From Bacteroidota bacterium (GTDB lineage: Bacteria; Bacteroidota; Bacteroidia; AKYH767-A; OLB10), in the NCBI GenBank assembly GCA_016713445.1, contig JADJPB010000001.1, positions 449,000 through 512,999 of the forward strand: a stretch of 64,000 nt of DNA, written 5' to 3'. Shown one piece after another: positions 218 through 60,800 of the stretch (positions are counted from its first letter, which is position 1; each line of letters opens with the position of its first letter). Under the pieces are notes generated by a model, which saw only the letters and a program-made list of their open reading frames with translations, searched no databases and was not told the origin of the DNA. The translations under genes were made by a program, and so were the position numbers.

Positions 218-366
218 AAAAATGCATAACGTAAGGGCAGAAAATATTCTGTCCTTTAATTTATTGCTATTTACATTCAATAAAAAAGCCCGCTCCGAAG
301 AACAGGCTTTTTTTGTTTAAATAATTTATTTAATTCTGAATTCCTAATTCTTAATTCTTAATTGAA

Positions 367-8010: not shown

Positions 8011-8165
8011 TTCGCAGAGGTTTTTCATATGATCTTATCTAACATCTAATCGCGATGACTCGCGACTAACCTCAAGTGTCCTCGTATGTTCTCAAGTGGC
8101 TCTAGTGTTAAAATCCGCTTCTCTAATCGAAGGACAATAAAAGACCTATCAATTCTGAATTCTTA

Positions 8166-8230
8166 TCCCGATAGACTTCGGCGAGAGCTCAGTCGAACGC
8201 TATCGGGACTGAATCCGATAGCTATCGGAT
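8166..8230. repeat. two adjacent palindromic hairpins (tcccgatag..ctatcggga, and the perfect 18-nt atccgatagctatcggat)
   Basis: Read directly. They are flanked on both sides by aattctN heptad words (8151-8165 and 8231-8272). Confidence 0.8.
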
Positions 8231-8270
8231 CTTAATTCTTAATTCTTAATTCCTAATTCTTAATTCTGAA

Positions 8271-8666
8271 TTAACCTTCCGCTGCCATCGGCATCAACTT
8301 CGCTTTTCGAGTCTTTTTATTATACTGCTTTGTGATAATCCTTACCTGATTTTCAACATCGAACTCCACGCCAAAATCATAGCAAAACCGTTGCGTATGA
8401 TTCGTCAGAACCATCTCTTCTGTAAAGAACTGCCAATCGTAGCCATGATAAATCAGTTCGTCACGGTTAAATACGGTTTCTTTTCCTTTAGACAGTTCTG
8501 CCAAGATAAACCGGTTCTTCCGAAGCTTATGGTTCACATGTCGGATTAAGGCATTTCGATAGCCATTAAACTTATTGTGGTGCGCGTTCCGACACATATC
8601 GGAACAAAACTTCTTGTCGGATCTACCTGTAATAAGGTCTCCGCATTCATTACATTTTTTTGTCAT
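8271..8666 (-). CDS. hypothetical protein with N-terminal 4-Cys zinc ribbon
   Basis: 131-aa ORF. The N-terminus CNECGDLITGRSDKKFCSDMCRNAHHN has CxxC..CxxxC. The rest has no recognisable motif. Confidence 0.6.
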   Translation of the reverse strand: MTKKCNECGDLITGRSDKKFCSDMCRNAHHNKFNGYRNALIRHVNHKLRKNRFILAELSKGKETVFNRDELIYHGYDWQFFTEEMVLTNHTQRFCYDFGVEFDVENQVRIITKQYNKKTRKAKLMPMAAEG

Positions 8667-9222: not shown

Positions 9223-9584
9223 ATGAACTCATTAAAAAACAAAGTCAACTTGATTGGCAACCTCGGGTTCAATCCCGAAATCAAAATGTTGGACAGCGGC
9301 AAGAAACACGCTAAAGTGACCATCGCCACCAACGAATCGTACCGCAACGCCAAAGGCGAACGCATAACCGATACCCAATGGCATAATTTGGTAGCGTTCG
9401 GAAAGACGGCTGAAATTATGGAGCGCTTCACCAAAGTGGGAAGCAAGATCGCCCTCGAGGGCAAGCTGGTGAGCAGAAGCTACACCGACAAACAAGGACA
9501 AAAAAATACATCACGGAAGTGCAGGTAAACGAAATCCTGGTCCTAAGCAACTTCAACGACGAAGAATCCGAAGTGGAGAACTAA
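9223..9584 (+). pseudogene. ssb: single-stranded DNA-binding protein, frameshifted in an A run (about 9500-9506)
   Basis: An OB-fold SSB pattern is present (NKVNLIGNLG..PE.., TQWHNLVAFGKTAE, GSKIALEGKLVSRSYTDKQGQK). The adjacent frame continues KYITEVQVNEILVLSNFNDEESEVEN*. Confidence 0.85.
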
Positions 9585-9853: not shown

Positions 9854-10159
9854 ATGAAAACAAAGAATCCTAACCTCACTTCGTTCACGCAACATTTAGA
9901 TTCCCAATATGGAAAAAGAGGAACCAAAAAACGCGAGCAATATGAGCAAGAATTTGAAGCTTTCAAATTAGGCGTCATGCTCCAAGACTTAAGAAAGGAA
10001 ATAGGTCTCACACAAGAGCAATTAGCTCAAAAATGTGGCACTACAAAAACGTATATCTCGCGCATCGAAAACGACGCGAGCGATATTCGTCTCACTACTC
10101 TCATGCGTATTGTAAGCGAAGGACTAGGCGGTAGATTGCGGTTTTGGGTGGAGAAATAG
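9854..10159 (+). CDS. XRE-family HTH protein, HigA-like antitoxin paralogue with no adjacent toxin gene
   Basis: The HTH reads GLTQEQLAQKCGTTKTYISRIENDASDIRLTTLMRIV. The architecture matches ORF 12615-12920. Confidence 0.8.
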   Translation: MKTKNPNLTSFTQHLDSQYGKRGTKKREQYEQEFEAFKLGVMLQDLRKEIGLTQEQLAQKCGTTKTYISRIENDASDIRLTTLMRIVSEGLGGRLRFWVEK

Positions 10160-12122: not shown

Positions 12123-12178
12123 GGCTCGATCTCGATACTCGATGCTCGATCTCGATACTCGATGCTCGATGCTTGAAT
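12123..12178. repeat. heptad tandem repeat (ctcgatN)n
   Basis: Read directly: ctcgatctcgatactcgatgctcgatctcgatactcgatgctcgatgcttgaat. Confidence 0.8.
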
Positions 12179-12246: not shown

Positions 12247-12609
12247 GTGGTGAAGACTGAAAGGCAAATCATTTTCTATGAACATTATTTTACCAAGTTT
12301 TATTTGGCGCAAACAAATAAAGTTCAAGAGAAAATAGAATTTGTTTTTAAAATATTACGGACCGTTGAAAGGGTTCCCATAAAGTTCTTGGATCATATGA
12401 CTGGTACGGACGGACTTTATGAGATTCGAGTGGAGGTGGCAAGTGATATTTACAGAATATTTTGTTGTTTCGACAAAGGCAATTTGGTAATATTGTTTAA
12501 TGGGTTTCAAAAGAAAACGCAAAAGATGCCCAAGCGAGAATTGGAAACTGCAGAAAAACTTAAACCTGCCTGCTGCAGGCAGGCGCGAATATTTCGCAAG
12601 CAAAATTAA
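12247..12609 (+). CDS. RelE/ParE-superfamily toxin (Gp49/HigB-like); the C-terminus is altered by a palindromic insert
   Basis: 120 aa with ..GLYEIRVEVASDIYRIFCCFDKGNLVILFNGFQKKTQKMPKRELETAEKLK.., typical of Gp49-like toxins. An HTH antitoxin gene follows 5 nt downstream. The last 15 codons run through the hairpin element at 12565-12583. Confidence 0.75.
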   Translation: MVKTERQIIFYEHYFTKFYLAQTNKVQEKIEFVFKILRTVERVPIKFLDHMTGTDGLYEIRVEVASDIYRIFCCFDKGNLVILFNGFQKKTQKMPKRELETAEKLKPACCRQARIFRKQN

Positions 12610-12614
12610 AAGTA

Positions 12615-12920
12615 ATGAAAAAGAAAAATATAAAAGAGGCCAAATCGTTCGATGAACTTTTGGAAATCAAATACGGTATCATTGGCACCCCAAAGCGTGA
12701 CAAATTCGAAGAGAAGGCACAATACTTTGTCATCAGCGTAATGTTGAAGGAAGCCAGAAAAGAAGCTAATATGACGCAAGAAGAATTGGCAGACAAAGTA
12801 GGAACAAAGAAGAGTTATATTTCCAGATTGGAAAACGGAAAATGTGACATTCAACTATCAACACTGTATCGAATCTTTGAATTTGGACTTGGTCGCCCTA
12901 TTAACTTATTAATCGGGTAA
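12615..12920 (+). CDS. HigA-like XRE-family HTH antitoxin
   Basis: The HTH reads NMTQEELADKVGTKKSYISRLENGKCDIQLSTLYRIF. It sits directly downstream of the Gp49-like toxin. Confidence 0.85.
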   Translation: MKKKNIKEAKSFDELLEIKYGIIGTPKRDKFEEKAQYFVISVMLKEARKEANMTQEELADKVGTKKSYISRLENGKCDIQLSTLYRIFEFGLGRPINLLIG

Positions 12921-31228: not shown

Positions 31229-32638
31229 TGAATAAACCCCGTCAAATAATTAAGTATGTCATCGCTGATCTTTTGTCGGCTATGTTCGCGTGGGCTTTAT
31301 TTTATTATTATCGTAAAATAGGAATTGAGTCGGCTTTGTATGGCGATCATCTCCCCTTTCAGCCCGACAAAAATTTCTATTTAGGGATTACGGTGCTTCC
31401 GATCGCTTGGGTGGGAATCTATGCCTTGGTTGGTACCTATAATGATATCTACAGGAAATCGAGGTTGCGTGAATTTGGACAAACCTTATACGTATCGTTG
31501 ATAGGAGTTCTTATTATTTTCTTTTCACTATTATTAGATGATGTTATCGTGTCTTATAAGAGCTATTACAATATCTTTTTTGTCTTATTCTTCTTGCAAT
31601 TTGGAATTACCTCGATGGTTCGCTTTTTTATTACAAACCCATACCGCACGTAAAATAAAAAGTCGGCAATTGATTTCCTACGCTCATCATCGGAAGTAGT
31701 GAGCGGGCGGTAAACCTCTTCAAAGAGTATGAGGCCGAGAAACTAAGTTTGGGATATAAATTTATTGGCTTTATACATGTTGATCATAACAACGGTAAAT
31801 ACTTGGCGACCTTCTCCGCACTTAGGTGGAATTGAAGATCTTACTCAAATTATAGATGCGGATAAAATTGAAGAGGTGATCATTGCTATCGAATCTTCGG
31901 AGCATGAATTTATCGGTAGAATCATCAATGAATTGGAAGATAAAGATGTCATCATCAAAATCATTCCCGATATGTACGATATCCTTGCAGGGACTGTTAA
32001 GATGACTTCTATTTTCGGATCTCCTCATTATCATCAATCCCTCCTTGATGCCGGTTTTGGCAACAATCTTTGAAAAGGATTTTGGATATTCTAGTTTACC
32101 TTTCTTTTTGATGTTATTGAGTCCGGTATATGTAATTACCTCTATCATCATTAAAACAACTTCTCGTGGTCCGATCTTCTTCGCGCAAGAGCGAATTGGC
32201 TTGCATGGAAATCCATTCACCATCTATAAGTTTCGATCGATGTTTGTAGGTGCTGAAAAGGGAACGCCGATGTTATCCAGCGACAATGACAATCGCATTA
32301 CTCCCGTTGGAAGGTTTATGCGCGGCATTCGTCTGGATGAAATCCCACAATTTTACAATGTCCTCATTGGTGATATGTCACTCGTAGGACCGCGTCCAGA
32401 GCGCCAATTCTTCATCGACCAAATCATGCAACGCGCACCACATTACCGCCACTTGCATAAAGTACGTCCCGGCATCACCAGCTGGGGACAAGTTAAGTAT
32501 GGGTATGCTGAAAATGTAGAGGAGATGATTCATCGCTTGAAATACGATATCATCTACATCGAAAATATGTCATTGTCGTTGGATTTTAAAATCCTTTTTT
32601 ATACGATCAAAACTGTATTACAGAGAAGCGGGAAGTAG
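31225..32638 (+). pseudogene. polyprenyl-phosphate glycosyl-1-phosphate transferase (WbaP/WcaJ-like bacterial sugar transferase), at least 4 frameshifts
   Basis: The C-terminal fragment has the bacterial sugar transferase signature (GPIFFAQERIG..G..F.IYKFRSM ... DEIPQFYNVLIGDMSLVGPRPE). An N-terminal TM fragment and a central CoA-binding-like fragment (KFIGFIHVD.., IIAIES) lie in other frames. Confidence 0.8.
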
Positions 32639-32668
32639 CTGCTGGCTTCTGGCTGCTAGCTGCTAGAA
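32635..32668. repeat. left arm of an inverted-repeat pair (gctRgMa word family)
   Basis: gtagctgctggcttctggctgctagctgctagaa starts in the stop codon of the sugar-transferase gene and is complementary to 32936-32967. Confidence 0.8.
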
Positions 32669-32935: not shown

Positions 32936-32967
32936 CTAGAAGCTAGAAGCTAGCAGCCAGAAGCTAC
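32936..32967. repeat. right arm of the inverted-repeat pair
   Basis: ctagaagctagaagctagcagccagaagctac ends in the recF stop codon. Confidence 0.8.
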
Positions 32968-35849: not shown

Positions 35850-36195
35850 AACGCTGCCTGAGGAAACTCGCGGGTAACATGATAGAGAAAGGGCAGGATG
35901 AAAATTCTGCCTTTTTTTATTCTCTTCAACCAGCCTTTAGGATTTTTGAACGCGGATAAAACGGATCAATAGGATTGGCGCGGATTAATTCATATTCAAA
36001 TAAAAGTCTCAGTGCACTAAAGTGACCTCTTGTGCTCTTGTGTTGAAAAAGCAATAGTCGAAGTGTGATTTTTAAATAAGGAATAAACAATCTAGAAGCT
36101 AGCAGCTTGAAGCTAGCAGCAAAAACATGATGTAGCAAAAAGTAATATGTAGCTAAGATTTCAATGCTTCTAAAAACTATATCAAAGCTCGTAGC

Positions 36196-36658: not shown

Positions 36659-37415
36659 ATGGCGCACGACATCGATTATCAAATAATTGGAGACGATATT
36701 CAAGTAGTAGAAGTAGAAATGGATCCCGGAGAAGCTGTTCGCGCGGAGGCTGGAGCCATGCTTTTTATGGAAGATGATATTGAAATGCAAACGAATACAG
36801 GAGGTGGAATTTTTAAAGGGTTGAAGCGGATGATCACAGGGGAAAGTTTTTTTATTACCAGTTTCACCAACAATGGAAATAGTAAACGGAAAATGGCATT
36901 TGCAGCGCCCTACCCAGGGAAAATCATTGCGATTAATCCAAAAGATTTTGGTGGCAAGTTTCTTTGTCAGAAAGATGGTTTTTTATGTGCAGCTCAGGGA
37001 ATCGAAATTAATATTGCTTTTACAAAACGTATTGGTGCGGGACTGTTTGGCGGAGAAGGATTTATCCTTCAGGAATTGTCGGTGACGGAAATACTTTTAT
37101 TCATGCTGGGGGAACCATCTTAAAAAGACAACTACTGCCTGGAGAAACGCTTCGTGTCGATACTGGCTGCCTAGTGGCTTTCGAGCCGTCTGTGCAATAC
37201 GACATTAAATTTATCGGTGGTTTTCGAAATTCACTCTTCGGCGGCGAAGGCTTGTTTTATGCTTTGATTAAAGGTCCGGGTTTGTGTACTTACAAAGCGT
37301 ACCTTTCTCTCGTATGGCCGATCGAATTGTTGCCGCATCTCGTGTTGGTGGCGGTAGAGAAGAATCCCGAGGGTTAGGTGGGGTGTTAGGTGGGATGATC
37401 AGTGGGAAAGAATAA
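36659..37415 (+). pseudogene. TIGR00266/AIM24 (DUF124) family protein, 2-3 frameshifts
   Basis: The fragments read MAHDIDYQIIGDDIQVVEVEMDPGEAVRAEAGAMLFM.. and ..GGEGFILQ.., ..FGGEGLFYALIKGPG... A Gly-rich tail (..SRGLGGVLGGMISGKE*) sits in a third frame. Confidence 0.7.
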
Positions 37416-37648
37416 CGCGAAATGCGAATGAACACGAAGGACGCGAAAAGCGAATGAACACGAAATGCGAAAAAGTGAATTTCGCACCGCTTCGCGATAT
37501 TATATTCTTGGTTTAATTAAATGTTAATTTTATATAGCAAGTTAATTAGCGAAGAATTAATTAACACCCATAATAGCAAATTTCGCATTTCGTGTTCATT
37601 CGCATTTCGCGTCATATCGCATTTTCGTGTTCATTCGCATTTCGCTTC
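37416..37648. repeat. ORF-less long-hairpin element (cgaaatgcgaatgaacac word family) with an AT-rich loop
   Basis: The left arm (37416-37500) and right arm (37577-37648) are imperfectly complementary over about 70 nt. The element starts right after the stop codon of the upstream gene. Confidence 0.85.
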
Positions 37649-37667
37649 AAATCAAATTTCGTAACTT

Positions 37668-38977: not shown

Positions 38978-40085
38978 ATGTTATTGGGTATCCCCTTAGA
39001 AACCAAAGAAAGAGAGTGTCGAGTAGCCCTCACTCCCGATATTTGTTCACAATTAATTGAAGCCGGTTTTCAAGTTCAACTTGAAAAAGGAGCCGGATTG
39101 AAGTCTTACTATCCTGACGATCAGTATATCGCCAAAGGTGTTAAAATTGTTGATGGCGCTTCCTCAATTTACTCCAGTTCGGATGTGGTATTGAAGGTAA
39201 ATGCTCCTTCCACCTCTGAAATTTCAGGAATGAAGAAAGGGGCCACCTTAATTTCATTTATGTGGGCCGGAACCAATCCTGAGTTAATTGAAAATTGCGC
39301 GAAGCAAGGTATCTCCGCTTTTTCGGTAGATGCGATTCCGCGTATATCGAGAGCACAGAAGATGGACGCGTTAAGTTCTCAAGCCAACTTAGCTGGATAC
39401 AAGAGTGTAATCATGGGAGCCAATGCTCTTGGAAAGATATTTCCGATGTTGATGACCGCTGCTGGTACAATTAAACCTTCAAAGGTGGTGATTTTTGGTG
39501 CTGGTGTGGCAGGACTCCAAGCGATTGCTACTGCAAAACGATTGGGATCCATCGTAGAAGTAACGGATATCCGCCCAGAAACAAAAGAGCAAGTAGAATC
39601 ATTAGGAGGGAAATTCATCATGGTAAGTGATGATGACTCTATCAAAATTGAAGGTGGATATGTGAAAGGGGTGTCAGATGAATTCTTGAAAAAACAACAA
39701 GAACTCGTTTCTAAACATGTTGCCACTGCAGATTTAGTAATCACCACCGCCCTCATCCCAGGAAGAAAAGCGCCTGTCCTCGTTACGGAAGACATGGTAA
39801 AAGCATGAAATACGGATCAGTCATCGTTGACATGGCCGTGGAGCAAGGTGGTAATTGTGTGTTAAGCGAGTTGAATGCAACGGTAGTGAAACATGGTGTA
39901 ACCATCATAGGAGAATCGAACATTCCTTTCTCCCTACCCTTAAACGCCAGCGATCTGTATGCAAAAACATACAAACATTCCTTCTCCATTTAGCCACCAA
40001 AGACGGGTTTAAATGGGAGATGGATGAAGAAATTACGAAAGGTTCCTTGTTGGTACATAATGGCGTTTCTACCGCTACGAAGTAA
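38978..40085 (+). pseudogene. pntAA: NAD(P) transhydrogenase subunit alpha part 1, two frameshifts near 39805-39990
   Basis: It is AlaDH/PNT-like: RVALTP, the NAD-binding site VVIFGAGVAGLQAIATAKRLG, then MKYGSVIVDMAVEQGGNC and ..VKHGVTIIGESNIP.. in shifted frames. Confidence 0.85.
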
Positions 40086-40122: not shown

Positions 40123-40192
40123 ATTGCAAATTGGCAAGTTGGTGGGTTGATGAGTTGGTGGGTTGGTGGGTTGGTGAGTTGGTGGGTTAGTG
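40123..40192. repeat. left arm of the hairpin cassette: about 9 heptads of ttggtgRg
   Basis: Read directly: attgcaaattggcaagttggtgggttgatgagttggtgggttggtgggttggtgagttggtgggttagtg. It is complementary to 40771-40807. A related word occurs at 9667-9693. Confidence 0.85.
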
Positions 40193-40359
40193 TCGCAAGT
40201 CTTCTCGATAGTAAATTGATTCGCTACTCAGATCGATATAGGAAATGAAGATAAATTATAATTATACAATAGAATTAATAGAAGCTGAAAGCAAATCTGA
40301 ATATTAAAATTGAACAAACAAATGAACTTTTATATAAAACACTTTAACTTAATTAAACA

Positions 40360-40703
40360 ATGTCTCAATTATCTGAACAATTACGAAAACAAACAAAAGA
40401 AATGGCGATCAGCGCCATCTTATTAACAAGGAAACTTCCTCAAAACGACGAGGGATGGACAATTAAAAAACAACTCATAAGATCCGCTACTTCGGTGGCA
40501 GCCAATTACAGGTCGGCTTGTAGAGGAAGAAGTGATCGAGAATTCTATTCTAAATTATGTATTGTTGTTGAAGAGCTAGATGAATCAATGTTTTGGTTAG
40601 AGTTAACAGAAGATATTGAATTAATTCTTCAAAAGATGTGCAGCCAGTGATGGAAAAAATGAATAAATTATTGAAAATATTATCTGCTGCAAAAGCACAC
40701 TAA
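40360..40703 (+). pseudogene. four-helix-bundle protein (23S rRNA intervening-sequence protein family), with a frameshift near its 3' end
   Basis: The pattern ..QLIRSATSVAANYRSACRGRSDREFYSKLCIVVEELDESMFWLEL.. is typical of the family. The adjacent frame continues ..KDVQPVMEKMNKLLKILSAAKAH* to 40703. Confidence 0.8.
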
Positions 40704-40770
40704 GAAATAAAATAAATCCTAAAGAATTAGATTAAATAATAGTTGGTTGATTTAAATTAATATTAATCAA

Positions 40771-40807
40771 GAATCCACCAACTCACCAACTCACCAATCC
40801 ACCAATT
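40771..40807. repeat. right arm of the hairpin cassette (ccaacYcaccaa words)
   Basis: gaatccaccaactcaccaactcaccaatccaccaatt is the reverse complement of the left-arm heptads and ends 10 nt before the pntAB start. Confidence 0.85.
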
Positions 40808-41150: not shown

Positions 41151-42562
41151 ATGAAGAGCTCCCTGCTCGAAATTTGTTACCTCTTTGGCTCTGTCACTTT
41201 CATCGTTGGATTGAAAATGATGGGTAATCCGAAGTCAGCCCGTAAAGGAAATTTATTAGGTGCATTAGGAATGGTGATCGCCATTTTCGGAACGATTTTT
41301 CTTTTGAAAAGAAAGATCATGCCGGAAATATTGATACTGCATTTGTAGTTCCTGCAATAGTCTATTATCTCATATTTGGTGCCATAGCTCTTGGAACTGT
41401 GATCGGTTGGTTGACCGCCAAGCGTGTTCAAATGACCAAGATGCCTGAACTGGTTTCTATGTTCAATGGAATGGGTGGTGCATGCGCTGCATTGATTGGA
41501 TTAATGGAGTACGAGCACAATTTGGATAGCACCGGAGCATTGGCTGCTATCATTGCCGGAATGGTGATCGGAACCGTTTCTTTCAGTGGATCAATCATCG
41601 CTTATTTAAAATTGAATGGTTCCATGAATAAACCTATTCGATTGCCGCAATACAATATCATCAATACAATTTTCATGATTTCTTTAGTGGCGTTTGGAAC
41701 TTGGATGGTGATGATGAAACCAGATAATATGGCGATTTTGTATGCTTTGTTCTTTGCAGCTATCGTTTATGGAATTCTATTTACGATTCCCATTGGTGGT
41801 GCAGATATGCCGGTAGTTATATCGTTGCTGAATTCATTCACTGGACTCGCTGCAGCATTCGGCGGATTCTTATACGACAATAAAATTATGCTTACAGGTG
41901 GAATCCTGGTAGGTTCCGCAGGAACTCTTTTAACACTCGTGATGTGTAAGGCGATGAATCGTCCATTGAGTAATGTCATTTTCGGTGCATTTGGAGCTTC
42001 TGGTGCGACTGGAGATCGTGAAGTGAGTGGAAATATCAAAGACATCAACGTAAGCGATACGGCTGTTCTAATGAACTATTCTAAGAAAGTAGTGATTGTA
42101 CCTGGATATGGATTAGCAGTAGCTCAAGCACAACACGTAATTCATGAGTTAGAAATGATTTTAGAAGAACGAGGTGTAAGTGTGAAATATGCCATTCATC
42201 CCGTAGCTGGTCGTATGCCTGGACATATGAACGTGCTTTTAGCAGAGTCCAATGTTTCTTATGATAAGTTGGTGGAGATGGAAGACATCAATCCTGAGTT
42301 TGCTTCAACCGATGTTGTGTTGGTCGTTGGAGCAAATGACGTTGTAAATCCAGCTGCACATAATGATCCGGCTTCCCCAATTTATGGAATGCCAATTTTA
42401 GATGTAGAAAACGCAGCCCATATCATCGTCAACAAACGTTCGATGAATGCGGGTTATGCCGGTATCGAAAACGAACTCTTCTTTAATCCCAAAACGAATA
42501 TGTTGTTTGGTGATGCGAAAACGGTTCTGACAAAATTAGTGGCGGAGTTGAAAGCATTGTAA
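41151..42562 (+). pseudogene. pntB: NAD(P) transhydrogenase subunit beta, one frameshift (about 41340-41400)
   Basis: The N-terminal TM fragment begins at 41151. The large fragment has ..VVIVPGYGLAVAQAQH.., ..HPVAGRMPGHMNVLLAE.. and ..VVGANDVVNPAA.. Confidence 0.9.
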
Positions 42563-42852
42563 CGCGAAATGCGGTCTGACGCGAAATGCGAACTGACGCG
42601 AAATGCGAATGAACACGAAATGCGAACTGACGCGAAATGCGAACTGACGCGAAATGCGAACTGACGCGAAATGCGAATGAACACGAAATGCGAATGAACA
42701 CGAAATGCGAAATAATGCGAAATTTGATTTTCGTTTTTTTCTGGATCCTCTTATTACGACTAAAATATTATAATTAATAGAATATTAAATTAAAATATAC
42801 GAAGCGGTGCGAAATTGATTTTCGCATTTCGTGTTCATTCGCATTTCGTGTC
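42562..42852. repeat. second copy of the cgaaatgcgaa hairpin element, in opposite orientation, with a tandemly expanded left arm
   Basis: The left arm (42562-42733) is about 9 tandem units of gacgcgaaatgcgaact/gaatgaaca. The right arm is 42800-42852. The motif cgaagcggtgcgaaatt (42800-42816) is the reverse complement of 37478-37494. Confidence 0.85.
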
Positions 42853-46827: not shown

Positions 46828-48090
46828 ATGTCGTTACGAATTATTATCTTCATTCTCGTCCTTCTTGCAATCGATTTCTACGTTTTTCAAGGGTTCAAAT
46901 TCGCCTTTAGAAATACATCCATAACCACTCAAAAGTCGTGAGCATTGCTTTTTGGAGTTTAACAGTTTTACGACTTCTGTCTTACTAGCAATGTTAATCA
47001 AAGATTGGTCGACCTGGCCAAAAGTGATAAAGACCTATGCTGGAGCGATGGTATTCATCATTACTTTTTCTAAATTATTTATCATTTTATTTTTATTAAC
47101 AGATGATATTTTTAGAGGAGTAAAATGGGCGTATGAAAAAATATTTCCTGGTAAAGAAGCCATAGATCCGTCCGCAATTCCAGCTATTCTCAATAAAGGA
47201 ATCTCTCGCTCCGACTTTTTAGTGCGAAGTGGCTTAGTGGTGGCAGCGCTTCCTTTTGTAGGATTGATTTATGGAATGGTAAAGGGAGCTTATGATTATC
47301 AAGTAAAAAATATAAAATTGAATTTAGCGAATTTGCCAAAAGCTTTTCACGGATATAAAATCATTCAGATTTCTGATTTGCATGTGGAAGTTTCGTTAGT
47401 TCGGAACCGTTAGAAGAAGCGGTGCGCATCATCAATGAACAAAATGCAGATATCATTCTATTCACAGGTGATTTAGTGAATAATCGCTCGGATGAATTGA
47501 ATATGCATAAAGCAGCTTTGTCAAAATTAAAAGCAAAGCACGGCGTATTTTCTACTCTGGGGAATCACGACTATGGTGATTATGTACCTTGGGATACAGA
47601 GGAGCTGAAGCGTGAAAATTTAGCTGCTTTAATTGCAGGTCATAAAGAGATGGGCTGGAATATCTTGATGGACGAACATCGACATATTGAAAAAGACGGA
47701 GAGAGAATTACCCTAATTGGTGTTCAGAATTACAGTATGCATTTACGATTTCCTAAATATGGAAGTTTGCCAAAGGCCACTGAAAATATTCAATACAGTG
47801 ATTTCAATATTTTGCTCTCTCACGATCCTAGTCATTGGCGCGGTGAAGTCATCAAAGATTTTCCTGAGATTGATCTCACCTTAGCCGGACATACTCACGG
47901 CTTCCAATTCGGCGTCGAACTTCCCAATTTCAAATGGAGTCCAGTACAGTATGTTTACAAAGAATGGGCAGGACTTTACACAGAAGGAAAGCAACAGCTG
48001 TATGTCAATAGAGGTTTAGGCTTTCTAGGCTATCCTGGGCGGGTTGGGATATTGCCTGAGATTACGGTGCTTGAACTGCACCGGAGTTAA
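46828..48090 (+). pseudogene. membrane-anchored metallophosphoesterase, 2-3 frameshifts
   Basis: N-terminal TM fragments are followed by ..IIQISDLH.., then DIILFTGDLV, GNHDY and LAGHTHG. Confidence 0.75.
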
Positions 48091-48375
48091 TTCAGAATGT
48101 AGAATTAAGAATTCAGTCATGAGGCTTCCAGATCAGAATTACCCCTTACCTATCACCTTTTTTATCTTTTATCTTCCATTTCACAGACCCTCTTTAATTC
48201 GCTCTCGAATACTAACGCTCGTTAACTCTACCTTATTCTGCCGATAACATCTGGAACTTCGTTCTGAATTCTCCTCCTCCTCCTCACGGTAGCTTTCAAT
48301 ACATTATTCAGTTTTCTACAAAATCTTCACTTTATTGTAATAATTCTGAATTCTGCATTTATAATTCTGAATTAT
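48088..48375. repeat. hairpin element of the aattcWgaat word family with a ~220-nt loop
   Basis: The left arm taattcagaatgtagaattaagaattcag (48088-48116) begins in the stop codon. The complementary right arm is taataattctgaattctgcatttataattctgaattat (48339-48375). Confidence 0.8.
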
Positions 48376-48391
48376 CCCCTATCTTTATTCT

Positions 48392-50438
48392 ATGAAAAGA
48401 CTTTACATCCTATTAATTTTAATATTTTGCCAGCTCAATGTTTCAGCACAATGGCAGCAGACCAGTGGACCAGGAGGAGGATATATTTCTTCTTTCGCTT
48501 CTAATGGAAATAACCTTTTTGTTGCGACAACTTTAGGCGGTGTTGGATATTATGGAGCCGGAGTTTTCCTTTCGACAAATAATGGTGCTACATGGACACC
48601 AAAAAATGCGGGCTTACTTTGCACTGGTATTTATACTCTATTGACAATCGGCACGTCGATTTTTGCAGGCACCGATAATGGAATTTTCACCACCAATAAC
48701 AGTGGTAATTCTTGGAGTCAACTTAGTAATGGAATTCCTTCTACCTATGTAACTTCATTGATTTTAGATGGCGTATCAATTATTGCTGCGACATATGACA
48801 GCGGGATGTTTGTTTCAAACAATAATGGAGTTTCTTGGAGTCCAATAAATATGGGCTTTGCTAATCCAGAAGTGTGGGCATTGGCATCCAACGGATCTGA
48901 GATTTATGCGGGTGTAAATGGAGTTGGACTATATAAATCAATTGACAATGGTGCTAGTTGGAATCTGTTAAATAATGGAATTTCAAGTTCTAATTTCTCC
49001 TGTATTGCTTTAAATGGACAAGATGTGTTTGTTAGTGCCACAGGAGGTGTTTTTCATTCTAATAATGGAGGTGCGCAATGGAATTCACTTAATTCAGGAC
49101 TGACTAGTTTACAAATAAAAACAATTTTTATTAATGGCTCAGATCTATTTGTAGGTACAAATGACTCCGGTTTATTTTATTCGAACAATAATGGGGCTTC
49201 ATGGTCGGCAAGCAATATTGGATTGTTGAACAGTACCATTACTTCGGGAAGCATTCATAATTCTATTCTTTTTGTAGGTTCTGATGGCGGTGGAGTTTAC
49301 TCATCTGTAAATGGTGGATTGAATTGGAATCCTTCAAGTGTTGGATTAGTAAATAGTGCTATATCATCTCTTGCTACCGATGGGGTTCATCTTCTTGCTG
49401 GTTCCGAATCAGCAGGTTTGTTTTCCACAAATGACAATGGGGTTACTTGGACAGGTCAAAATAACGGTTTACCAGTTTGTAACATTACACAAGTTTTATA
49501 TGTAGATTCTGTGATGTATTTATCAACTTGGGGAGATGGTATATTTTCTTCTATAGACAGTGGGTATCATGGGCATCATTAAACACAGGATTAAACAACC
49601 TCTATTTAAATACAGTATTGGTAGACGGAGCAAATATTTTGTAGGAACTAATTCTGGAATTTTGCATACTAATGATAACGGAATTACTTGGACTACGATG
49701 AATTCAGGATTGGGAAGTCCAATAGTCATGACCATGGCAAAAAATGGAACCAGCATATTCGCCGGTACTTATGGCAATGGTGTTTATGTATCGAGCAATA
49801 ATGGAGCTTTTGGTCACTCACCAGTAGTGGATTTTCGCAAGCCGTCGTTTCAAAATTTTATCGCATAACGGATATTTAATTGCTGGAACCTTTGGTGGAG
49901 GGGTATTTACTTCTTCCGACAATGGAGTGAGTTGGACACCAAGCATTGCTACACCGTTTGGTGCTACTTATGACATGGTAGGTTATAATAATTTTCTTTT
50001 GTTGCAACAAGTGGCGGGGTAAAATTATCTAATGACTATGGGTATACTTGGAGTAATGTGTATTCAAATTCACTATTTAGTGCAGTTAGATCTATTGCCA
50101 CTCATGATGGATATCTTTTTGCAGGCACGTGGGATAAAAGTGTATGGAAAACTCTTTTAGCTCCTCTGGTAGGAGAAGATGAACTAACGTTCAATCTCAA
50201 CTTTAACTTGTACCCAAATCCTACAAATAATGTTTTAAATATCGATTTTAAAGGAACCCAAAACCAAGTAAATATAATTACGCTAATGAATGCATATGGT
50301 CAAATTGTTTATTCATCAAGCATAAATTCATCTGCAAAGGAATCCATCGATATTAGCCATTTACCAAGTGGAATGTATTTAGTTCATGTAGAATCGAAAG
50401 ACGGAAGGGCTACTCGTAAATTCATTGTTGAGGATTGA
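48392..50438 (+). pseudogene. BNR/Asp-box repeat protein with a T9SS C-terminal sorting domain, about 3 frameshifts
   Basis: A signal peptide is followed by more than 10 S-x-(D/N)-x-G-x-(T/S)-W repeats. The C-terminus ..LYPNPTNNVLNIDF...SGMYLVHVESKDGRATRKFIVED is typical of type A T9SS sorting domains. Confidence 0.75.
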
Positions 50439-50637
50439 TTCAATTCAGAATTAAGAATGCAGAATTCAGAATTAGTAAATTCTCTCCTAGGTCATCTTGT
50501 TATTCGCTTCGTAGCGTATCATAGCAATACTTTCAAAAGCAATATTTCAAATTGTGGTTCAAATTAGTTTTTCTCGTGAATTCGGTAGATAAATCCTAGA
50601 AAATAATTCTGCATTCTGAATTCTGCATTCTGAATTA
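50439..50637. repeat. second hairpin element of the aattcWgaat family with a ~125-nt loop
   Basis: The arms 50439-50475 (ttcaattcagaattaagaatgcagaattcagaattag) and 50601-50637 (aataattctgcattctgaattctgcattctgaattat) are complementary. Confidence 0.8.
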
Positions 50638-50648
50638 TATCTTTGCCC

Positions 50649-51351
50649 ATGCTTCCTACACTCTACTTAATTCCATCTTCCTCGGTGCTGAAAATGTAAA
50701 TGATTTTTTGCCCGAAGGCACCTTAACATTATTCGCAACTTAAAACATTTTATTGTTGAAGATTCAAAAACGGCTCGTGCTTTTCTGAAGACATGCAATA
50801 TCGTTTACGCACAAAGCGATTTAAGCGTCGAGGTGCTCGACAAACACGATCCGAATCATAATATAGCTCAATTGATGTTGCCGCTTAAGGAGGGCATTTC
50901 TCTGGGCGTTTTGAGTGAGGCTGGATGTCCAGGGGTAGCGGATCCAGGCGCCTTGGTCGTTGCAGAAGCACATCGAATGGGCGTGAAAGTAGTTCCCTTG
51001 GTTGGACCCTCTTCCCTACTCCTCGCCTTGATGGCATCTGGATTGGAAGGACAGCGTTTTTGTTTTCATGGGTATATCACCATTGATAAAACCGAACGCA
51101 TGAAGAAAATTCAGCGAATGGAAGAAGCCGCAAAATCAAGAAAAGAAACCCAACTTTTTATTGAAACACCCTATCGTAATAATCAAGTGCTATCCGATTT
51201 ACTTCAACATCTTGGAGGTGAAACAAAACTTTGCCTAGCGGTCTCCATCAACACTCCGGATGAAATGATCCGCACATTAAAAGTAAAAGAATGGAAAAAC
51301 AATAAACCCGAGTTGCATAAGTTGCCATGTGTGTTTTTGATTGGAGGATAG
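50649..51351 (+). pseudogene. tetrapyrrole-methylase-fold SAM-dependent methyltransferase (RsmI-like), at least 2 frameshifts near the 5' end
   Basis: ATG at 50649 gives MLPTLYLIPS... Shifted frames give ..HFIVEDSKTARAFLK... The main fragment has ..GVLSEAGCPGVADPG..VV..AH..G..V.PLVGPSS.. Confidence 0.65.
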
Positions 51352-51581
51352 TTTCTGTAATTTATATTCTCACCATCATTAAAATTTCGCTTCCGAAAAT
51401 TACATAGCTGCTAGCTTCTGGCTGCAAGATGCAATGTTTGCATTGTCGAAGCATGGAGCCTGCACCACCGTTTTAGATTTAGTATACATGTTCATTCGCC
51501 CAATGAAACACTCAGGCAAGAAGTTCGCGGATTAGCGGATTCGAATTTAGTACATTCGTATCGATTCGTAATTCGTATCCT

Positions 51582-53253
51582 TTACCCTATTGCTACATTC
51601 ACCTTCTCAATAATCTCTTTCTCAATCTGCACAGCTTCGCTCTCTATTTTTGCAGCTCTTGCTAATATCTTTTCTAAATAAACTTTATCACTAAATCCTG
51701 AAGCATTGATGCGAACATTCATGTGTGCACCCAATACAGCAGTTCTTGCGCAGAGAGCACCTACTCCTGCATCGGTGATGGAATTTGGATTTCCTTTTTC
51801 CACCATCGCTTTCATGACTTGCATACTTTGAAGTGTCACCTCCATCACTTGAAATGGAATTTCGATGGCAAACTTAGTGGCAGCTTGCACCGCTTCTTTG
51901 CGAATTGCTTTCTCCTCATCAGTCCCTTTTGGCAATTTAAAAGCTTCTAAAATCATATTGAATGCACGCGTATCTTCATCCACCAAATGCATGAGTTGTT
52001 TCTTAAATTGTTGCCCTTTCTCCGCCCAATCGCTGAATTCTTCCCATGAGTCTTCCCATCCTTTTTTAGAGGCACTCAAATTCGCTACCATGGTTCCTAA
52101 AGACACACCCAGCGTTGCTACATAGGCAGAAATGGATCCTCCTCCCGGTGCCGGAGATTCACTCGCCGTTTCATTGGCAAAAGCAACGAGGTTCATATCG
52201 ATGAGTTTCTTATGTTCTGCCTCCAATTGATATTCGATAATTCGCTCTTTAGGATTGAAAGGTCCGAGTTCATCAAGACCCATGGATTTTACAGCAATAT
52301 GGATAAGTTCTTCATCGCTGACACCTGCACTTAACTTTTGTTTTTGAGAAAATATCTTCCAGCATCTAACATCGATGAAAGCGGAACTAATCCTACTAAC
52401 TCTGATCCGGTAACTCTTTGTCCACGTTTATAAGCACTCTCATAGCACTCTTGGAAAACAATATGCAGTGGGGTTTCCCTGAATTTTGTGATGTTGATAG
52501 AAACCTGCGCAATGCCATATTCATCAATATACCATCCAATCGCTTTTACTCCTTTCAAAGTTCCAGGCGTTCGAATTTCATTTCCTGAAGCATCCAATAC
52601 TTTTTTTCCTTTGTCATCCACTTTCACTCTGCCAGCTTCTCGAATATCGAAGGCAACACTGTTTGCGCGTTTTACAGATTTTGTATTGAGGTTAACATTG
52701 TACGCAATGAGAAATTCACGCGCTCCAATGACTGTAGCGCCAGTTTTGGAAGAAAATATGGCAGGACCATAATCCGGTTTCCATTGTGGTTCATTTATTT
52801 TTTTGAAAAACCCTTCGTATTCACCAGCGCGGATGATGGATAGGTTACTTCTTTCTTTATTCGGTTGAGCTTCTTCATAGAGGTAAACAGGTATGTTTAA
52901 TTTATTCCCTACTCTTTCGGCTAATTTCTTACTCCAAGCCGCTGTTTCTTCCATGCTAATATTTGCAATGGGAATGAATGGACAAACATCGGTTGCACCC
53001 ATGCGAGGATGTTCCCCTTTATGTTTACTCATGTCGATGAGTTGCGCCGCCATCTCGATGCCTTTGAATGCGGCTTCAACAACAGCATCTGGCTCTCCCA
53101 CGAGTGTCATTACGGTACGATTAGTAGCTTTACCTGGATCTACATTCAAAGTTTAACTCGGTCAACAGAGCGGATCGCATCTGCTATTTGCTGTACTATC
53201 TTTTCATCGCGTCCTTCGCTGAAGTTAGGAACACATTCAATAAGTTGTTTCAT
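51582..53253 (-). pseudogene. ftcD: bifunctional glutamate formimidoyltransferase / formimidoyltetrahydrofolate cyclodeaminase, 2 frameshifts
   Basis: ATG at 53253 gives MKQLIECVPNFSEGRD. Fragment 52331-53149 is the transferase domain (..HPRMGATDVCPFIP..). Fragment 51582-52283 is the cyclodeaminase domain (..SESPAPGGGS.SA..). Confidence 0.85.
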
Positions 53254-56842: not shown

Positions 56843-57688
56843 ATGGAATATATTGAATTAGATATCAAAATTAGTCCTTTGGATCCATTTAGGGAGTATA
56901 TGTCTTACCATTTGGCGGAAATAGGATTTGAAATGTTCACGGAAACGGAAAACGGTTTATTGGCTTATTCGCCATCGGATGCTTACAATGAATCAAGTGT
57001 AGATCAAATTTTCAAGGATGGTATCGAGTTAGGTTGTGAAGCGAGTTTCTCCTCTAAAATTATTCCATGGCAAAACTGGAATGAAGAGTGGGAAAAAGCC
57101 TATCAACCAGAAGTAATTGCCGGTAAAATATATGTACGTGCTGATTTTCATCCAGAGAACCCCGGCTACCCATTAGAAATTATTATTCAACCCCGAATGG
57201 CATTTGGAACAGGACACCACCCTACTGCTTCACAAGTGATGGAAATGATGTTGAAGATGGATTTTAAAGGAAAAAGAATTATTGACATGGGTTGCGGTAC
57301 GGGTATTCTTGCCGTCTTGGCCATGAAATTGGGTGCAGAGCATGCCATAGCCATAGACAACGATGCCAATGCTGTTGAGAATTCTGTCGACAATGTACTA
57401 AAAAACTCCTGTAAAAATATTGAAGTCTTTGAGGGTGAAGCTGTGGGATTAAAGGGTTTAAAGTGCGATATCTTCATCGCAAACATCAACCGAAATATTA
57501 TTTTAAATGATCTTGCGTTGTATAAAGAAACCATGACGAATGGTGGAGAGCTTATCACGAGTGGATATTATCTTCAGGATTTAACCATCATCACTAAGAA
57601 AGCCAAAGAATTTGGATTTGAATTTATTGAAAATACAGTACAGAATGATTGGTGCTGTGCAAGGTTTCTATTAGCTTCTAGCTTCTAG
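56843..57688 (+). CDS. prmA: ribosomal protein L11 methyltransferase
   Basis: 281 aa with ..IIIQPRMAFGTGHHPTA.. and the SAM motif IIDMGCGTGILA. The last four codons plus the stop (A-S-S-F-TAG) are encoded by the gcttcta repeat. Confidence 0.85.
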   Translation: MEYIELDIKISPLDPFREYMSYHLAEIGFEMFTETENGLLAYSPSDAYNESSVDQIFKDGIELGCEASFSSKIIPWQNWNEEWEKAYQPEVIAGKIYVRADFHPENPGYPLEIIIQPRMAFGTGHHPTASQVMEMMLKMDFKGKRIIDMGCGTGILAVLAMKLGAEHAIAIDNDANAVENSVDNVLKNSCKNIEVFEGEAVGLKGLKCDIFIANINRNIILNDLALYKETMTNGGELITSGYYLQDLTIITKKAKEFGFEFIENTVQNDWCCARFLLASSF

Positions 57689-57735
57689 CTTCTAGCTTCT
57701 AGCTTCTAGCTTTTAGCTTTTAGCTTCAAGCTTCT
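57671..57735. repeat. heptad tandem array (gcttcta), about 9 copies
   Basis: Read directly. It overlaps the 3' end of prmA. Confidence 0.9.
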
Positions 57736-57770
57736 TAATTGATTAATGCAATGTAATCCTAACAACTAAC

Positions 57771-57852
57771 ATCATCCAACATCCAATATCCAACATCCAA
57801 TATCCAACATCCAATATCCATCCAACATCCAACATCCAATATCCAACATCCA
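57771..57852. repeat. heptad tandem array (Yatccaa), about 11 copies
   Basis: Read directly. It ends 4 nt before the ATG at 57857. Confidence 0.9.
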
Positions 57853-57856
57853 AAGA

Positions 57857-60800
57857 ATGAAATTATATAGACTCGTCATTTTTACACTGCTATTTACTCT
57901 AGCCAATTACTCATCATTTGCGCAAGCGCCGAAATCATTTAGCGCGGAGCCAGTCGCATTTTTAAGGAGCTCAAAGACTATATGGAATTGACGAATAAAA
58001 ATGAGACTGGGAAGTTAATGGATAAGTTTGAGTTGATTTGGATAAAGACACCCAAGTTTACCGGAGAGCAAATGCGGACTATCGTTGCAACAGCAAACGA
58101 TATGTTAAAAAAGAGAATGAAACCATATCCCGATTTTAGCAATTATGTAATAGCCTTGATGGCATTCAGCGAGTCAGGCCGAAATTTAGATATGTTTTTG
58201 AATTGGCATAACAGTTTGGATAAAGTGATTTCAGGGAGCACGAAACGTTACAGTAACTATATTGAGGATGTCGCAGGACTTTTTGCCTCGAATACACTTT
58301 ACGAATCAAGTTCAACAAAATGGGTGGCAAGTACTGGCGATTTTATATTCGAGTTTGATACCGTGCCGCGCATCAAATTTCCGAAGATGGATTTAACATG
58401 CTATGCGAAAGATGATAGCAGCGTAATTACTGGTGTCAGTGGATACTATTATCCGTTGAGTAAATCTTTTATTGGAAAAGGTGGAAAATTGACTTGGACG
58501 AGAGCGGGATTGAATCCTGCTACTACTTATGCCGACATCCTTTCGGTTACGGTTGACTTGACGAGCACTGAGTGGGGTACTGACAGTGCTGTATTTTACA
58601 ATAAACAGTATTTCAAGGATCCTTTGAAAGGAAAAATCGTCGATAAAATTTTAGCCAATGTTGCGCCTGAAAAAGCAACGTATCCCCGATTTTATTCCTA
58701 CGATTTGAAATTAGGAATTAAAGAAATTGTGAAGGATGCAGATTATGTAGGTGGGTTTTCTCAGCAAGGAAGTAAGATGATTGGATCTGGAACGAAGGAA
58801 CAAAAAGCAACACTTACTTTTAAAAGAAATAACAAATTGTTTTAGTGGTTTCTTCCCTAAGTTTTGTGGTGCGTCCCGATCGAATTAGCTCCGATAATGC
58901 TGCCATTGTTTGTTATTATGAACAAGATAGTATCTACCATCCTTCGGTGGAAATGAAGTACATCAGTAAAGATAGAGAGTTGAGTTTTATTCGAACTTCT
59001 GGTGTGGGCGTGTCCATGCCTTTTTTCAATTCTTTCCATCAGATGGATATGTATGTAGATGCCATTTATTGGAAGATTGATGATCCCATTATGGAGTTGA
59101 AGATGTTGAGTGGTCAAGGCGAAAGCAAGATGGTGCTAGAGTCGAGTAATCTGTATACCGACGAGCGTTATCAAAAGATTCAAGGAATTTCTGATGTGAG
59201 TCCGCTCTACACCATCAAACAATATGTAGAAAAGACAAGTAGAATTATATATGTTCCTGACTTTGCTCGTTATTTGAGAGTAAGTGAACAGCAAGCGCGT
59301 TCATTGATAATTTATTTGGCTAACAAAGGATTTCTAAGTTACGATTTTGAAACCGATGAGGCAACTGCGAATGAGAAGTTGTATTATTACTTAGCTGCAA
59401 GAAGCAATAAAACGGATTACGATAAAATTGAAATCGAATCTGTCATTTCCGCTTTACCGAATGCCAAGTTAAATTTGATGAATTTTGAAATGGACTTGCA
59501 GGGTGTAGGAAGAATTTTACTGAGCGACTCACAGCAAGTGTGGATTGCACCGATAGAACAAGAAATGCGTTTGTTGAAGAATAGAGATTTTGAATTTAGT
59601 GGTCGTGTTCATGCAGGTAGAAGTGATTTTTACGGCAAGAAATTCAAATTTTTGTATGATCAATTTAGAATCGATTTGACCAATGTAGATTCCATCCGAC
59701 TAAAAGTAGTTTCCGAAACAGAGTTGGATGCGAACGGAAATCCTAAGTTAATCCCTTTGAAAAGCACCTTACAAAACGTTGCAGGAAAAATTTATATTGA
59801 TAGTTTAACGAATAAGTCGAGTCGAAAAAGTTACCCCGCTTACCCAATTTTCGTGAGCGACAAGGAGGCGTATGTTTATTATGATCATCCCTCCATTTTT
59901 AATTCAGTTTATAAGCGTGATAATTTCTATTTCAAGATGGATCCGTTTACGATTGATTCGCTTGACAATTTTTCGGCGGGTGGACTTAAATTTAAAGGAG
60001 ATTTTGAATCGGGAGGCATATTCCCTACCATTGCTGAAACTGCAATCATTCGACCGGATTATTCTTTCGGTTTTGAAAGGGAAAGTCCGACTGAAGGGTA
60101 TCCCATGTATGGCGGTAAAGGAAGATATTACAACCATATTGATTTAAGTTATGCAGGACTATTGGGAGAAGGAAAAGTAGAATATCTAAGTTCCGCCTCT
60201 GAATCAAAAGAAATCAACTTTTTCCCAGATTCAACCAACCTAGATAAAGCCTCTTGGGATTTGAGAAAAGAGACCATTGCCGGTATTGGATTTCCACAGG
60301 CAAACGGGTCCGATACGTACATCAACTGGAGACCAAGGGAAGATAAGATGTATGTCTTCAAAAAATCATCAAAACTTGAAATTTATTATAAGAATGTGAC
60401 TGTTGATGGGAATTTAATTTTAGCATCAAAAGGCTTAGGCGGAAATGGCGATTCTTATTTCTTGGAGTCCGAATTGTACTCTAAGGATTTTTGGTTCAAA
60501 CAAGATGCATATGGAGCGGATACCTCTGATTTCAAGTTGAAGTCGGATGATGCTAATGTGTTAGCCATTCAAACCAAAAATGTAAAATCAAAAATTTATT
60601 TGGTAAAGCGGTTTGGAGATTTTATCTCTAACGGAAAAGGTTCATTTGTAAGTTTTCCATTGAACCAATACATCTGCTACATTGAACAATTCAAATGGTT
60701 TATCGATAAACAAGAAGTTGAATTTGGTGAGGACTATAAAGACAATACCAAACTCAATATTGAGGGTTCTGATTTCGTGTCCATCAATCCTTATCAAGAT

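Follow-up and report, generated by a model that had tools for sequence, protein, structure and literature searches.

The window analyzed here is a 64,000-nucleotide (nt) stretch (C1:449000-512999) of a Bacteroidota bacterium, whose assembly comprises 4.23 Mb in 27 contigs with 37.5% GC. Its closest public relatives are uncultured Bacteroidia/Bacteroidota metagenome-assembled genomes (MAGs). The window contains arrays of tandem 7-nt words, termed heptad arrays, that lie between genes. At the focal locus, the spacer downstream of prmA, the following features are found. Arrays are listed without a strand, and scores are those of Tandem Repeats Finder (TRF).

56843..57688, + strand: prmA, ribosomal protein L11 methyltransferase (PF06325, E 7.6e-44)
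57672..57735: left array, (TAGCTTC)x9.1, TRF score 107, overlapping the prmA 3' end by 17 nt
57773..57853: right array, (CATCCAA)x12, with a 14-nt higher-order unit, TRF score 113-132
57866: ATG of the next gene, 12 nt past the right array

The two arrays make up 128 of the 177 bases of the prmA spacer, in agreement with a first-pass annotation of the window that described this spacer as almost entirely two unrelated heptad arrays. The annotation also stated that the final four codons and the stop of prmA are encoded by the first array, and this holds. PrmA ends in ...W-C-C-A-R-F-L-L-A-S-S-F-TAG, and the A-S-S-F codons with the TAG stop (57674-57688) are sequence of the left array. On its own, the left array is predicted to form a weak hairpin of AGCU/AGCU helices.

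Arrays are present at the prmA stop in all six sister species compared (among them loci L001, L002, L003, L004 and L006; PrmA 85-89% identical, DNA about 80-85%), where they begin directly past the conserved ...WCCARF. In more distant relatives, PrmA ends with WCCA[RL]F, two further amino acids and the stop, and the spacer is plain. The sister words are of the GCTKCTR type in L001, L002 and L006 and GTTRGAT in L003 and L004, and the one-step intermediates GCTGTTG and GATGTTG connect them. In L003, L004 and L006, the left array recurs in inverse form ahead of the next gene. The spacer in the window is chimeric. Its left array is of the L001 type, and its right array (CATCCAA) is the inverse of the L003-type word, being reverse complementary to the left arm in L003 and L004 (GTTGGAT type). 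A comparison of sister divergence on the two sides gave no signal of a recombination breakpoint inside this spacer, because identity to every sister is about the same (80-85%) on either side.

Tandem arrays were called by TRF over the whole genome and placed relative to genes by using a crude gene model based on open reading frames (ORFs). The period distribution has a sharp peak at 7, as the first-pass annotation had anticipated, with 163 of 769 arrays at a score of at least 40 and 100 of 417 at a score of at least 50. A lesser peak occurs at period 8 (52 of 769 at the lower threshold). Heptad arrays number 26 per 400 kb of genome, compared with 0 in 400 kb of composition-matched Markov-1 random sequence. 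A small number of word families predominates, namely AATTCAG (37 arrays), AATTAAG/AAGAATT (27), GCTTCTA/AAGCTAG (18) and ACTCGAT (10). Period-7 arrays are largely intergenic (134 of 163), and those with a period of 12, 15 or 18 lie mostly in coding sequence.

The arrays are concentrated at stop codons. Within 10 nt of a stop lie 67 of 147 noncoding arrays, whereas random intergenic placement predicts 7.1 +- 2.6. A stricter test limited to main contigs and genes of at least 120 amino acids (136 arrays) gives 54 observed and 4.2 +- 2.1 expected. About 40-45% of arrays touch a stop, for which chance predicts about 5%. The preference for gene 3' ends proposed earlier is thus upheld, at about ten-fold enrichment. 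Start codons show no enrichment under the same random placement (7-8 arrays observed, 4-7 expected). Convergent spacers are overrepresented (69 arrays vs 27 expected), and divergent spacers are underrepresented (9 vs 32).

The most frequent offset of an array to the stop is -2, such that the AA of TAA opens the array. Array-abutted genes end in TAA (34), TAG (30) or TGA (5), matching the words; the genome-wide shares of these stops are 57%, 21% and 23%. The stop codon of array-abutted genes is part of the repeat word, as had been proposed. Only about 1.6% of all genes have an array at their stop, and therefore the arrays are not the general terminator of this genome.

Palindromic word cores occur in 130 of 161 arrays and in 18 of 36 families, compared with an expectation of 34% (p = 0.04). 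The word list contains no G-tract words in the major families, so that the arrays fall outside the G-quadruplex-forming subclass (GGGNATC), which is defined by four or more G-tracts of at least three G. Because the words are AT-rich and free of G-tracts, G-quadruplexes are not a general explanation. No matches at the Rfam gathering score were detected within the window. A CRISPR array was ruled out, because the units are contiguous and have no spacers.

The genus was surveyed in 20 genomes, and the AATTMAG word also in 15 other genera. AATTMAG is found in 10 of the 20 genus genomes, with 27-170 pattern hits each, and is essentially missing from the remaining ones and from the other genera. Contrary to what had been supposed, the arrays are therefore not specific to one genome. 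One genus member, G012, has 0 heptad arrays in a 400-kb sample. A sample of equal size (C1:100001-500000) from G030, a complete 3.7-Mb genome with 55% GC from another family of the same order, contains 63 heptad arrays. These use more than 40 other words, and many different arrays adjoin one another. Stop enrichment is also seen in G030 (17 observed vs 3.4 +- 1.9 expected). The 7-nt period across so many unrelated words fits a common generating bias, as the first reading of the window had suggested. By eye, palindromic cores are less dominant among the G030 words, and they are not taken as a general rule.

Across nine relatives, array-free spacers are constant in length and array-bearing spacers are variable. 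Arrays are present in strain-variant contigs of this assembly. Six sister MAGs from separate studies, short-read k-mer assemblies included, likewise carry arrays at this prmA site, so that independent assemblies reproduce them. Look-ups for independent assemblies of the same strain gave no exact match for PrmA or for the protein of the neighboring gene, and exact-word scans of metagenome contigs gave no match.

The arrays are strongly polar. AATT-type arrays at stops carry AATTMAG on the sense strand of the gene in 39 of 41 cases (antisense in 2), and those at starts read CTKAATT, the antisense form, in 8 of 8. Other word families are likewise polar. Neighboring arrays of the same word are inverted in 21 cases and direct in 3. 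Beyond what the first-pass annotation described, these inverted pairs usually bracket the whole spacer. The usual layout is [stop]-(AATTMAG)n-AATT, a unique AT-rich core of 56-270 nt, AATT-(CTKAATT)n, 8-20 nt, and [ATG]. Many same-word loci have fixed outer ends (T|AATT...AATT|A). Inverted same-word pairs are also present in the relatives G008 and G030. The following arms in the window have this layout.

48088..48139: AATTMAG left arm, beginning within the TAA stop of a metallophosphoesterase gene (Pfam)
48342..48373: (AATTCTG)x4.6, right arm, 18 nt ahead of the ATG of a BNR-repeat gene at 48392
50442..50473: (AATTCAG)x4.6, left arm, 3 nt past the stop of the type IX secretion system (T9SS)-tail gene 50058-50438
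50605..50636: (AATTCTG)x4.6, right arm, 13 nt ahead of the true ATG (50650) of an RsmI-like methylase gene

The spacer 50430-50660 is predicted to fold into an arm-arm stem of about 20 bp at -51 kcal/mol, compared with -39.4 +- 4.2 for shuffled sequences (z = -2.8). The leader ctttgcccATG of the RsmI-like gene is kept even in relatives without arrays. Near this ATG, the C-run of the gene is one base shorter than in the sisters, and a probable homopolymer indel error of the assembly lies at 50650-50700.

The assembly contains small haplotype (strain-variant) contigs (C2, C3, C7, C11, C19, C24, C26 and C27) that are 94-97% identical to regions of the main contigs. Contig C2 spans window positions of about 36200-57180 and has an additional 2,065 nt at about position 48456. 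About 22 arrays could be compared between haplotypes. Most show no difference, three vary in length by a single unit (exactly 7 nt), and one has an 18-nt insert. The insert (48116-48133) splits the array at 48088-48139 and is not in C2. No inverted core was detected, and core orientation is the same in 7 of 7 comparisons between haplotype contigs and in the orthologs of G006 and G008. Apart from haplotype contigs, cores between AATT arms have no second copy in the genome. Among 13 large haplotype indels, 5 have a 7- or 8-mer array within 60 nt of the breakpoint, and positions within this distance of an array make up only 1.35% of the genome.

Between the two modules listed above (each arm-core-arm') lies a three-gene block, 48392-50438, that extends from the BNR/sortilin-repeat protein to the T9SS sorting-tail protein. 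The block is present in G003, G010, G011 and G016 and absent from G001, G006, G008, G012 and G013. Where it is missing, G008 retains only module 1 and G006 retains only module 2, and therefore both block endpoints fall within AATT arrays. This is the outcome that would be expected of recombination between directly repeated arrays. In G003, one module type is duplicated and lies on either side of the block. Distant relatives have a plain spacer of 83-131 nt at this site.

Between pntA and pntB, an array-style pair of octamer arms encloses a gene.

40138..40192: (GTTGGTGG)x6.9, octamer left arm, between pntA and pntB
40360..40650, + strand: PF05635 gene ("23S rRNA intervening-sequence protein," 96 amino acids; Pfam E 7.3e-13)
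40772..40806: (CCACCAAY)x4.4, right arm, inverse of 40138-40192, 11 nt ahead of the ATG of the pntB 4TM (four-transmembrane) gene

At this site (40138-40806), G012 has a plain spacer of 105 nt, without the PF05635 gene and the arms, and the octamer arms in G008 and G006 have partly changed word or been lost. Inverted 7- or 8-mers bracket 5 of the 8 PF05635 loci of this genome, and the same holds for 5 of 7 loci sampled from others. Two PF05635 paralogs (80% protein and 79% DNA identity) at different loci have the same GCTTCTA arms, and the cassette was therefore copied as a unit. Among genus members, PF05635 genes average 5.9 per genome with AATTMAG arrays and 1.4 without (Mann-Whitney p = 2e-4; per Mb, p = 0.002), although genome size and the quality of the assemblies confound this difference. 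In G012, two PF05635 genes are present, yet 400 kb of its sequence contain no heptad array. An arrangement like that of an intervening sequence (IVS), with a PF05635 gene inside inverted stem-forming arms, is found in the 40138-40806 cassette and not in gene-less arrays.

Other element types were considered and set aside. Gene-less cores might be decayed PF05635 cassettes, and no protein-level remnants were found in them. Terminal inverted arrays recall a miniature inverted-repeat transposable element (MITE), and the flanking T...A is suggestive, but the arrays are not a MITE because the cores between arms are single-copy in the genome. A link to repetitive extragenic palindromic (REP) sequences and their associated tyrosine transposases (RAYTs) was rejected, as Y1 transposase genes are found whether or not arrays are present and have different repeats at their flanks.

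The three RAYT-like Y1 transposase genes of this genome (C17:80650-81900, C4:200935-201400 and C1:599800-600260) have GC-rich palindromes at their flanks, not heptads. These tandem REP-like palindromes, for example GGGGCGTAGCCCTG, are a repeat system separate from the heptads.

Other arrays in the window are as follows.

330..363: (TTAATTC)x4.9, 3 nt from the stop of minus-strand clpC
8230..8272: (TCTTAAT)x6.1, overlapping by 2 nt the stop of minus-strand ORF 8271-8666
12124..12173: (GCTCGAT)x7.4, in a divergent spacer and not at a stop
32636..32666: (TAGCTGC)x4.4, left arm in a convergent spacer, overlapping the sugar-transferase stop (gap -3; PF02397)
32936..32966: (CTAGAAG)x4.4, overlapping the minus-strand recF stop (gap -3; PF02463), inverted partner of 32636-32666
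36092..36120: (CTAGAAG)x4.1, nearest stop 75 nt away
42562..42723: (ACGCGAAATGCGAACTG)x9.5, 17-nt period, starting at the pntB stop and following the same position rule as heptads
51539..51577: ATTCGTA(C) 7/8-mer array, about 4 nt from the stop of minus-strand gene 51582-52283

Gene 51582-52283 (minus strand) encodes an FTCD_C-domain (formiminotransferase-cyclodeaminase C-terminal) protein. Of at least eight arrays that the first-pass annotation placed at stop codons, seven were confirmed, namely those of clpC, gene 8271-8666, the sugar transferase, recF, pntB, the metallophosphoesterase and the last gene of the BNR block; the AIM24-like gene of the eighth was not identified. Its list of repeats needs some corrections. 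The ttggtgRg word is an 8-mer, cttgagaaN has a period of 9-10, and the array at the pntB stop has a period of 17. The entries at 8151-8165, 9021-9052 and 51401-51432 are just two to four degenerate units, and the sequence at 51405-51428 lies 54 nt from a stop.

Further repeats are found beside these arrays. Longer-period arrays of ACGCGAAA/TTTCGCGT-like words lie at 37415-37464 and 37582-37662 (an inverted 26/35-nt pair) and at 42562-42723. A 51-nt tandem repeat (x5.4) rich in CGATCG/TCGATCGA palindromes is present at 7734-8006, in a gap of about 1.1 kb without a called gene. Small palindromes are dispersed genome-wide, with 30 copies of TCCCGATAGCTATCGGGA and 82 of TCGCGAAGCYTCGCGA (in the window, 8166-8230 and 48116-48133). 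They are frequently inside or adjoining heptad arrays: 7 of 27 intergenic TCCCGATAGCTATCGGGA copies and 9 of 77 TCGCGAAGCYTCGCGA copies lie within 30 nt of an array, where 5% are expected. Small dispersed repeats have been reported inside cyanobacterial heptamer arrays, and the TCCCGATAGCTATCGGGA/TCGCGAAGCYTCGCGA palindromes resemble them.

A Gp49/HigB-like toxin gene followed by a helix-turn-helix (HTH) antitoxin-like gene is located at 12247-12920. A second HTH gene (9854-10159) and a single-stranded DNA-binding protein (SSB) gene (9223-9528) lie in a repeat-rich region that looks accessory. The large secreted-protein gene that starts at 57866 is broken into three frames, and pntA also appears split; probable homopolymer indel errors of the assembly are at 57940-57990 and 58845 and at 39805-40075.

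The explanation that we favor, with moderate confidence, is that slippage-grown, polar and paired arrays fill the unconstrained ends of spacers, and that recombination between arrays drives both the turnover of words and the gain and loss of gene blocks. Arrays would lengthen or shorten by whole 7-nt (sometimes 8-nt) units through replication slippage, as shown by the strain variants that differ by exactly 7 nt. The preference for 7 nt would be a general bacterial bias, noted earlier in the literature. Survival of arrays may be limited to DNA without other function, and therefore they would reach the last constrained codon and stop 8-20 nt before a start. They may also overwrite nonconserved C-terminal codons and provide the stop. 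PrmA and the RsmI-like gene show this placement of arrays. Where both ends of a spacer have one word in opposite orientations, single-stranded DNA or a transcript that reads through is predicted to pair into a long stem, which might act as a terminator, a protector of 3' ends or an RNase III site. Same-word arrays also would provide dispersed homology, by which recombination or gene conversion may spread and replace words. Recombination between arrays may gain or lose intervening DNA, as shown in the case of a single three-gene block, with strain-level indels as a further indication. In our view, the repeats are mainly a by-product that is tolerated and renews itself, with RNA folding and genome plasticity affected incidentally, and not a dedicated terminator system.

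Several points weigh against this explanation. The sharing of AATTMAG by about 64 arrays, and its retention in 10 species, are not accounted for by slippage alone. With about 64 same-word arrays, word copying or selection must also act, beyond independent slippage. Slippage alone also accounts neither for strict polarity nor for placement at spacer edges. The recombination step is based on one well-resolved block and 13 indels. The two arrays of the prmA spacer are unrelated words, and the right array is predicted to be unstructured and not to pair with the left. Cognate arms are not clearly more complementary than arms of different spacers (n = 10), with p = 0.03 on one of three measures and no significance on the other two. 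This result argues against strong locus-specific upkeep of arm pairing.

An alternative that is possible, yet rather unlikely, is that the arrays are a selected RNA device. Paired arms would give double-stranded RNA stems as substrates for RNase III, or stems that serve to terminate or insulate transcription and to protect 3' ends. Cistrons would be separated in the manner of excised 23S IVS stems, and unpaired C/A-rich arrays before starts would be unstructured translation leaders. Such a device would fit the bracketing of entire spacers, with one arm at the stop and the other just ahead of the start, and the predicted 20-bp stem in the spacer 50430-50660. It would also fit the prmA loci of L003, L004 and L006, where the right arm switches word along with the left; in L004 the arms match at 15 of 16 positions, which is longer than one repeat unit. 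The similar arms around PF05635 genes point in the same direction. In addition, tandem heptamers of the Coxiella 23S IVS occur at a mapped RNase III 5' site (PMC4990558), transcripts of Xanthomonas begin or end at heptamer arrays more than at controls (PMC4692102), and hairpins of cyanobacterial short tandemly repeated repetitive (STRR) sequences have been proposed to stabilize transcripts or couple translation (PMC2670836). Against such a device stands the small share of genes (about 1.6%) with an array at their stop. Close relatives in the genus have no arrays at the same spacers, or none at all (G012), and no obvious replacement. Moreover, the arms of the prmA spacer are noncomplementary, and covariation of cognate arms within the genome is weak.

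It is improbable that the arrays are arms of a mobile or enzyme-spread element, such as REPIN-like (REP doublet) or MITE-like hairpins or arms of PF05635-linked cassettes, that homes just 3' of stops. This proposal would account for same-word arms with fixed outer ends at many loci, for the copying of the GCTTCTA-armed PF05635 cassette to another locus and for the same module on both flanks of the gene block in G003. The greater number of PF05635 genes in AATTMAG genomes also agrees with it, but that correlation is confounded, as noted, and G012 has two such genes and no array. The uniqueness of the cores of AATT arms means that there is no multi-copy element, and gene-less cores have no PF05635 remnants. 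Palindromes of another, GC-rich kind lie beside the Y1/RAYT genes, and these genes are present in array-bearing and array-free relatives alike. The mobile origin offered in the first-pass annotation is unsupported.

A more inclusive proposal, which we consider improbable, joins several of these elements. Inverted heptamer arms would bound exchangeable "stop-to-start" modules, acting as RNase III-type stems (of which the 23S IVS would be a special case) and as portable DNA homology. The PF05635 four-helix-bundle protein would recognize or propagate the arrays, each paralog with its own word. If this were true, one cause would underlie the heptamer repeats of cyanobacteria, Xanthomonas, Bacteroidota and other phyla.

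Inverted arms could also be recombination sites of invertible promoter segments (phase variation), since inverted repeats around AT-rich segments of 80-270 nt upstream of genes resemble invertible promoters of Bacteroidota. This is very unlikely, because core orientation is constant among haplotypes and in the G006 and G008 orthologs, many pairs are located in convergent spacers, in which switching a promoter would serve no purpose, and left arms adjoin stop codons. Assembly or sequencing artefacts are hardly credible, despite homopolymer frameshifts and strain-variant contigs in this assembly, given arrays in both haplotypes, at the same site in six independent MAGs (short-read ones included) and in the complete genome G030 of another family.

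Heptamers of the STRR type were reportedly described by Mazel and colleagues in 1990. In cyanobacteria, STRRs are 7-bp intergenic units with several word families per genome and hairpins, for example between hupS and hupL; roles in transcript stability, translational coupling or termination have been proposed (PMC2670836). The arrays in this genome share 7-bp intergenic units, multiple words and hairpin layouts with STRRs, and differ in words and phylum.

The heptamers GGGAATC of Xanthomonas and GGGGAYT of Nostoc form arrays that overlap the stop or lie at most 50 bp from it on the sense strand, and antisense arrays upstream of ORFs; the arrays are transcribed (Rehm et al. 2015, PMC4692102). 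Each genome has 70-75 convergent inverted pairs, conserved in position and variable in length and sequence (PMC4692102). Our arrays are similar in being intergenic tandem 7-mers that are stop-proximal, polar, rare between divergent genes and arranged in inverted pairs. Unlike the Xanthomonas and Nostoc repeats, they have AT-rich words without G-tracts, often with palindromes of 4-6 bp (GAATTC, AGCT/CTAG, TCGA), and many unrelated word families coexist in one genome, in the phylum Bacteroidota.

Long simple sequence repeats have units of 5-11 nt, most commonly 7, with a patchy phylogeny, and polymerase slippage was proposed for the 7-nt preference (Mrazek, Guo and Shah 2007, as summarized in PMC4679880). 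As summarized there, that survey gives no inverted-pair architecture or stop rule, unlike what is seen here. Direct TAACTGA repeats of Beggiatoaceae, Cyanobacteria and some Bacteroidetes adjoin ORF ends, some overlap stops, and a role in gene rearrangement was suggested (MacGregor 2015, PMC4679880). Gramella, Aequorivita and Elizabethkingia have mixed heptamer assemblages that are missing from close relatives (PMC4679880). TAACTGA repeats are short, direct, one-word sets mostly just upstream of starts, whereas the arrays described here are mainly at stops and in inverted pairs.

In the 23S IVS of Coxiella burnetii, an S23p (PF05635) ORF lies within stem-forming flanks (Warrier et al. 2016, PMC4990558). 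These flanks contain tandem heptamers, variable in number among strains, at the mapped RNase III site (PMC4990558). The layout at 40138-40806 in the window is similar, and RNase III cleavage there is putative. Unlike the Coxiella IVS, this cassette lies between protein genes (pntA/pntB) and not in rRNA, and most arrays enclose no gene. REPs and REPINs are likewise extragenic hairpin doublets that are lineage-specific and common past gene 3' ends. The present arms differ in consisting of tandem 7-mers, where REPs have a fixed palindrome of about 35 nt. Each spacer enclosed by arms is unique, and RAYT-like genes reside with other repeats.

The first-pass annotation could not assign these repeats to a named family, but their architecture has been published for Xanthomonas/Nostoc heptamers, STRRs and heptameric long simple sequence repeats. 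Since they match published features of the Xanthomonas/Nostoc repeats and STRRs, the arrays belong to an already described repeat type. They are to be placed with cyanobacterial STRRs and Xanthomonas/Nostoc heptamers, in a sub-clade of an uncultured Bacteroidia genus. New here are strain differences in copy number by whole units, a block variant that ends within arrays, and array-style arms around a PF05635 gene.

Bacterial heptamer repeats have been on record since 1990 and still lack an explanation. For their study, this lineage has the advantage of combining many unrelated AT-rich words, close relatives with and without arrays, and a natural block variant that ends in arrays. For annotation, it is relevant that conserved genes can take their final codons and stop from an array, and that short-read assemblies are broken by arrays. 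If the arms prove to be sites of RNA processing or recombination, they would represent a widespread means of delimiting transcription units and exchanging genes.

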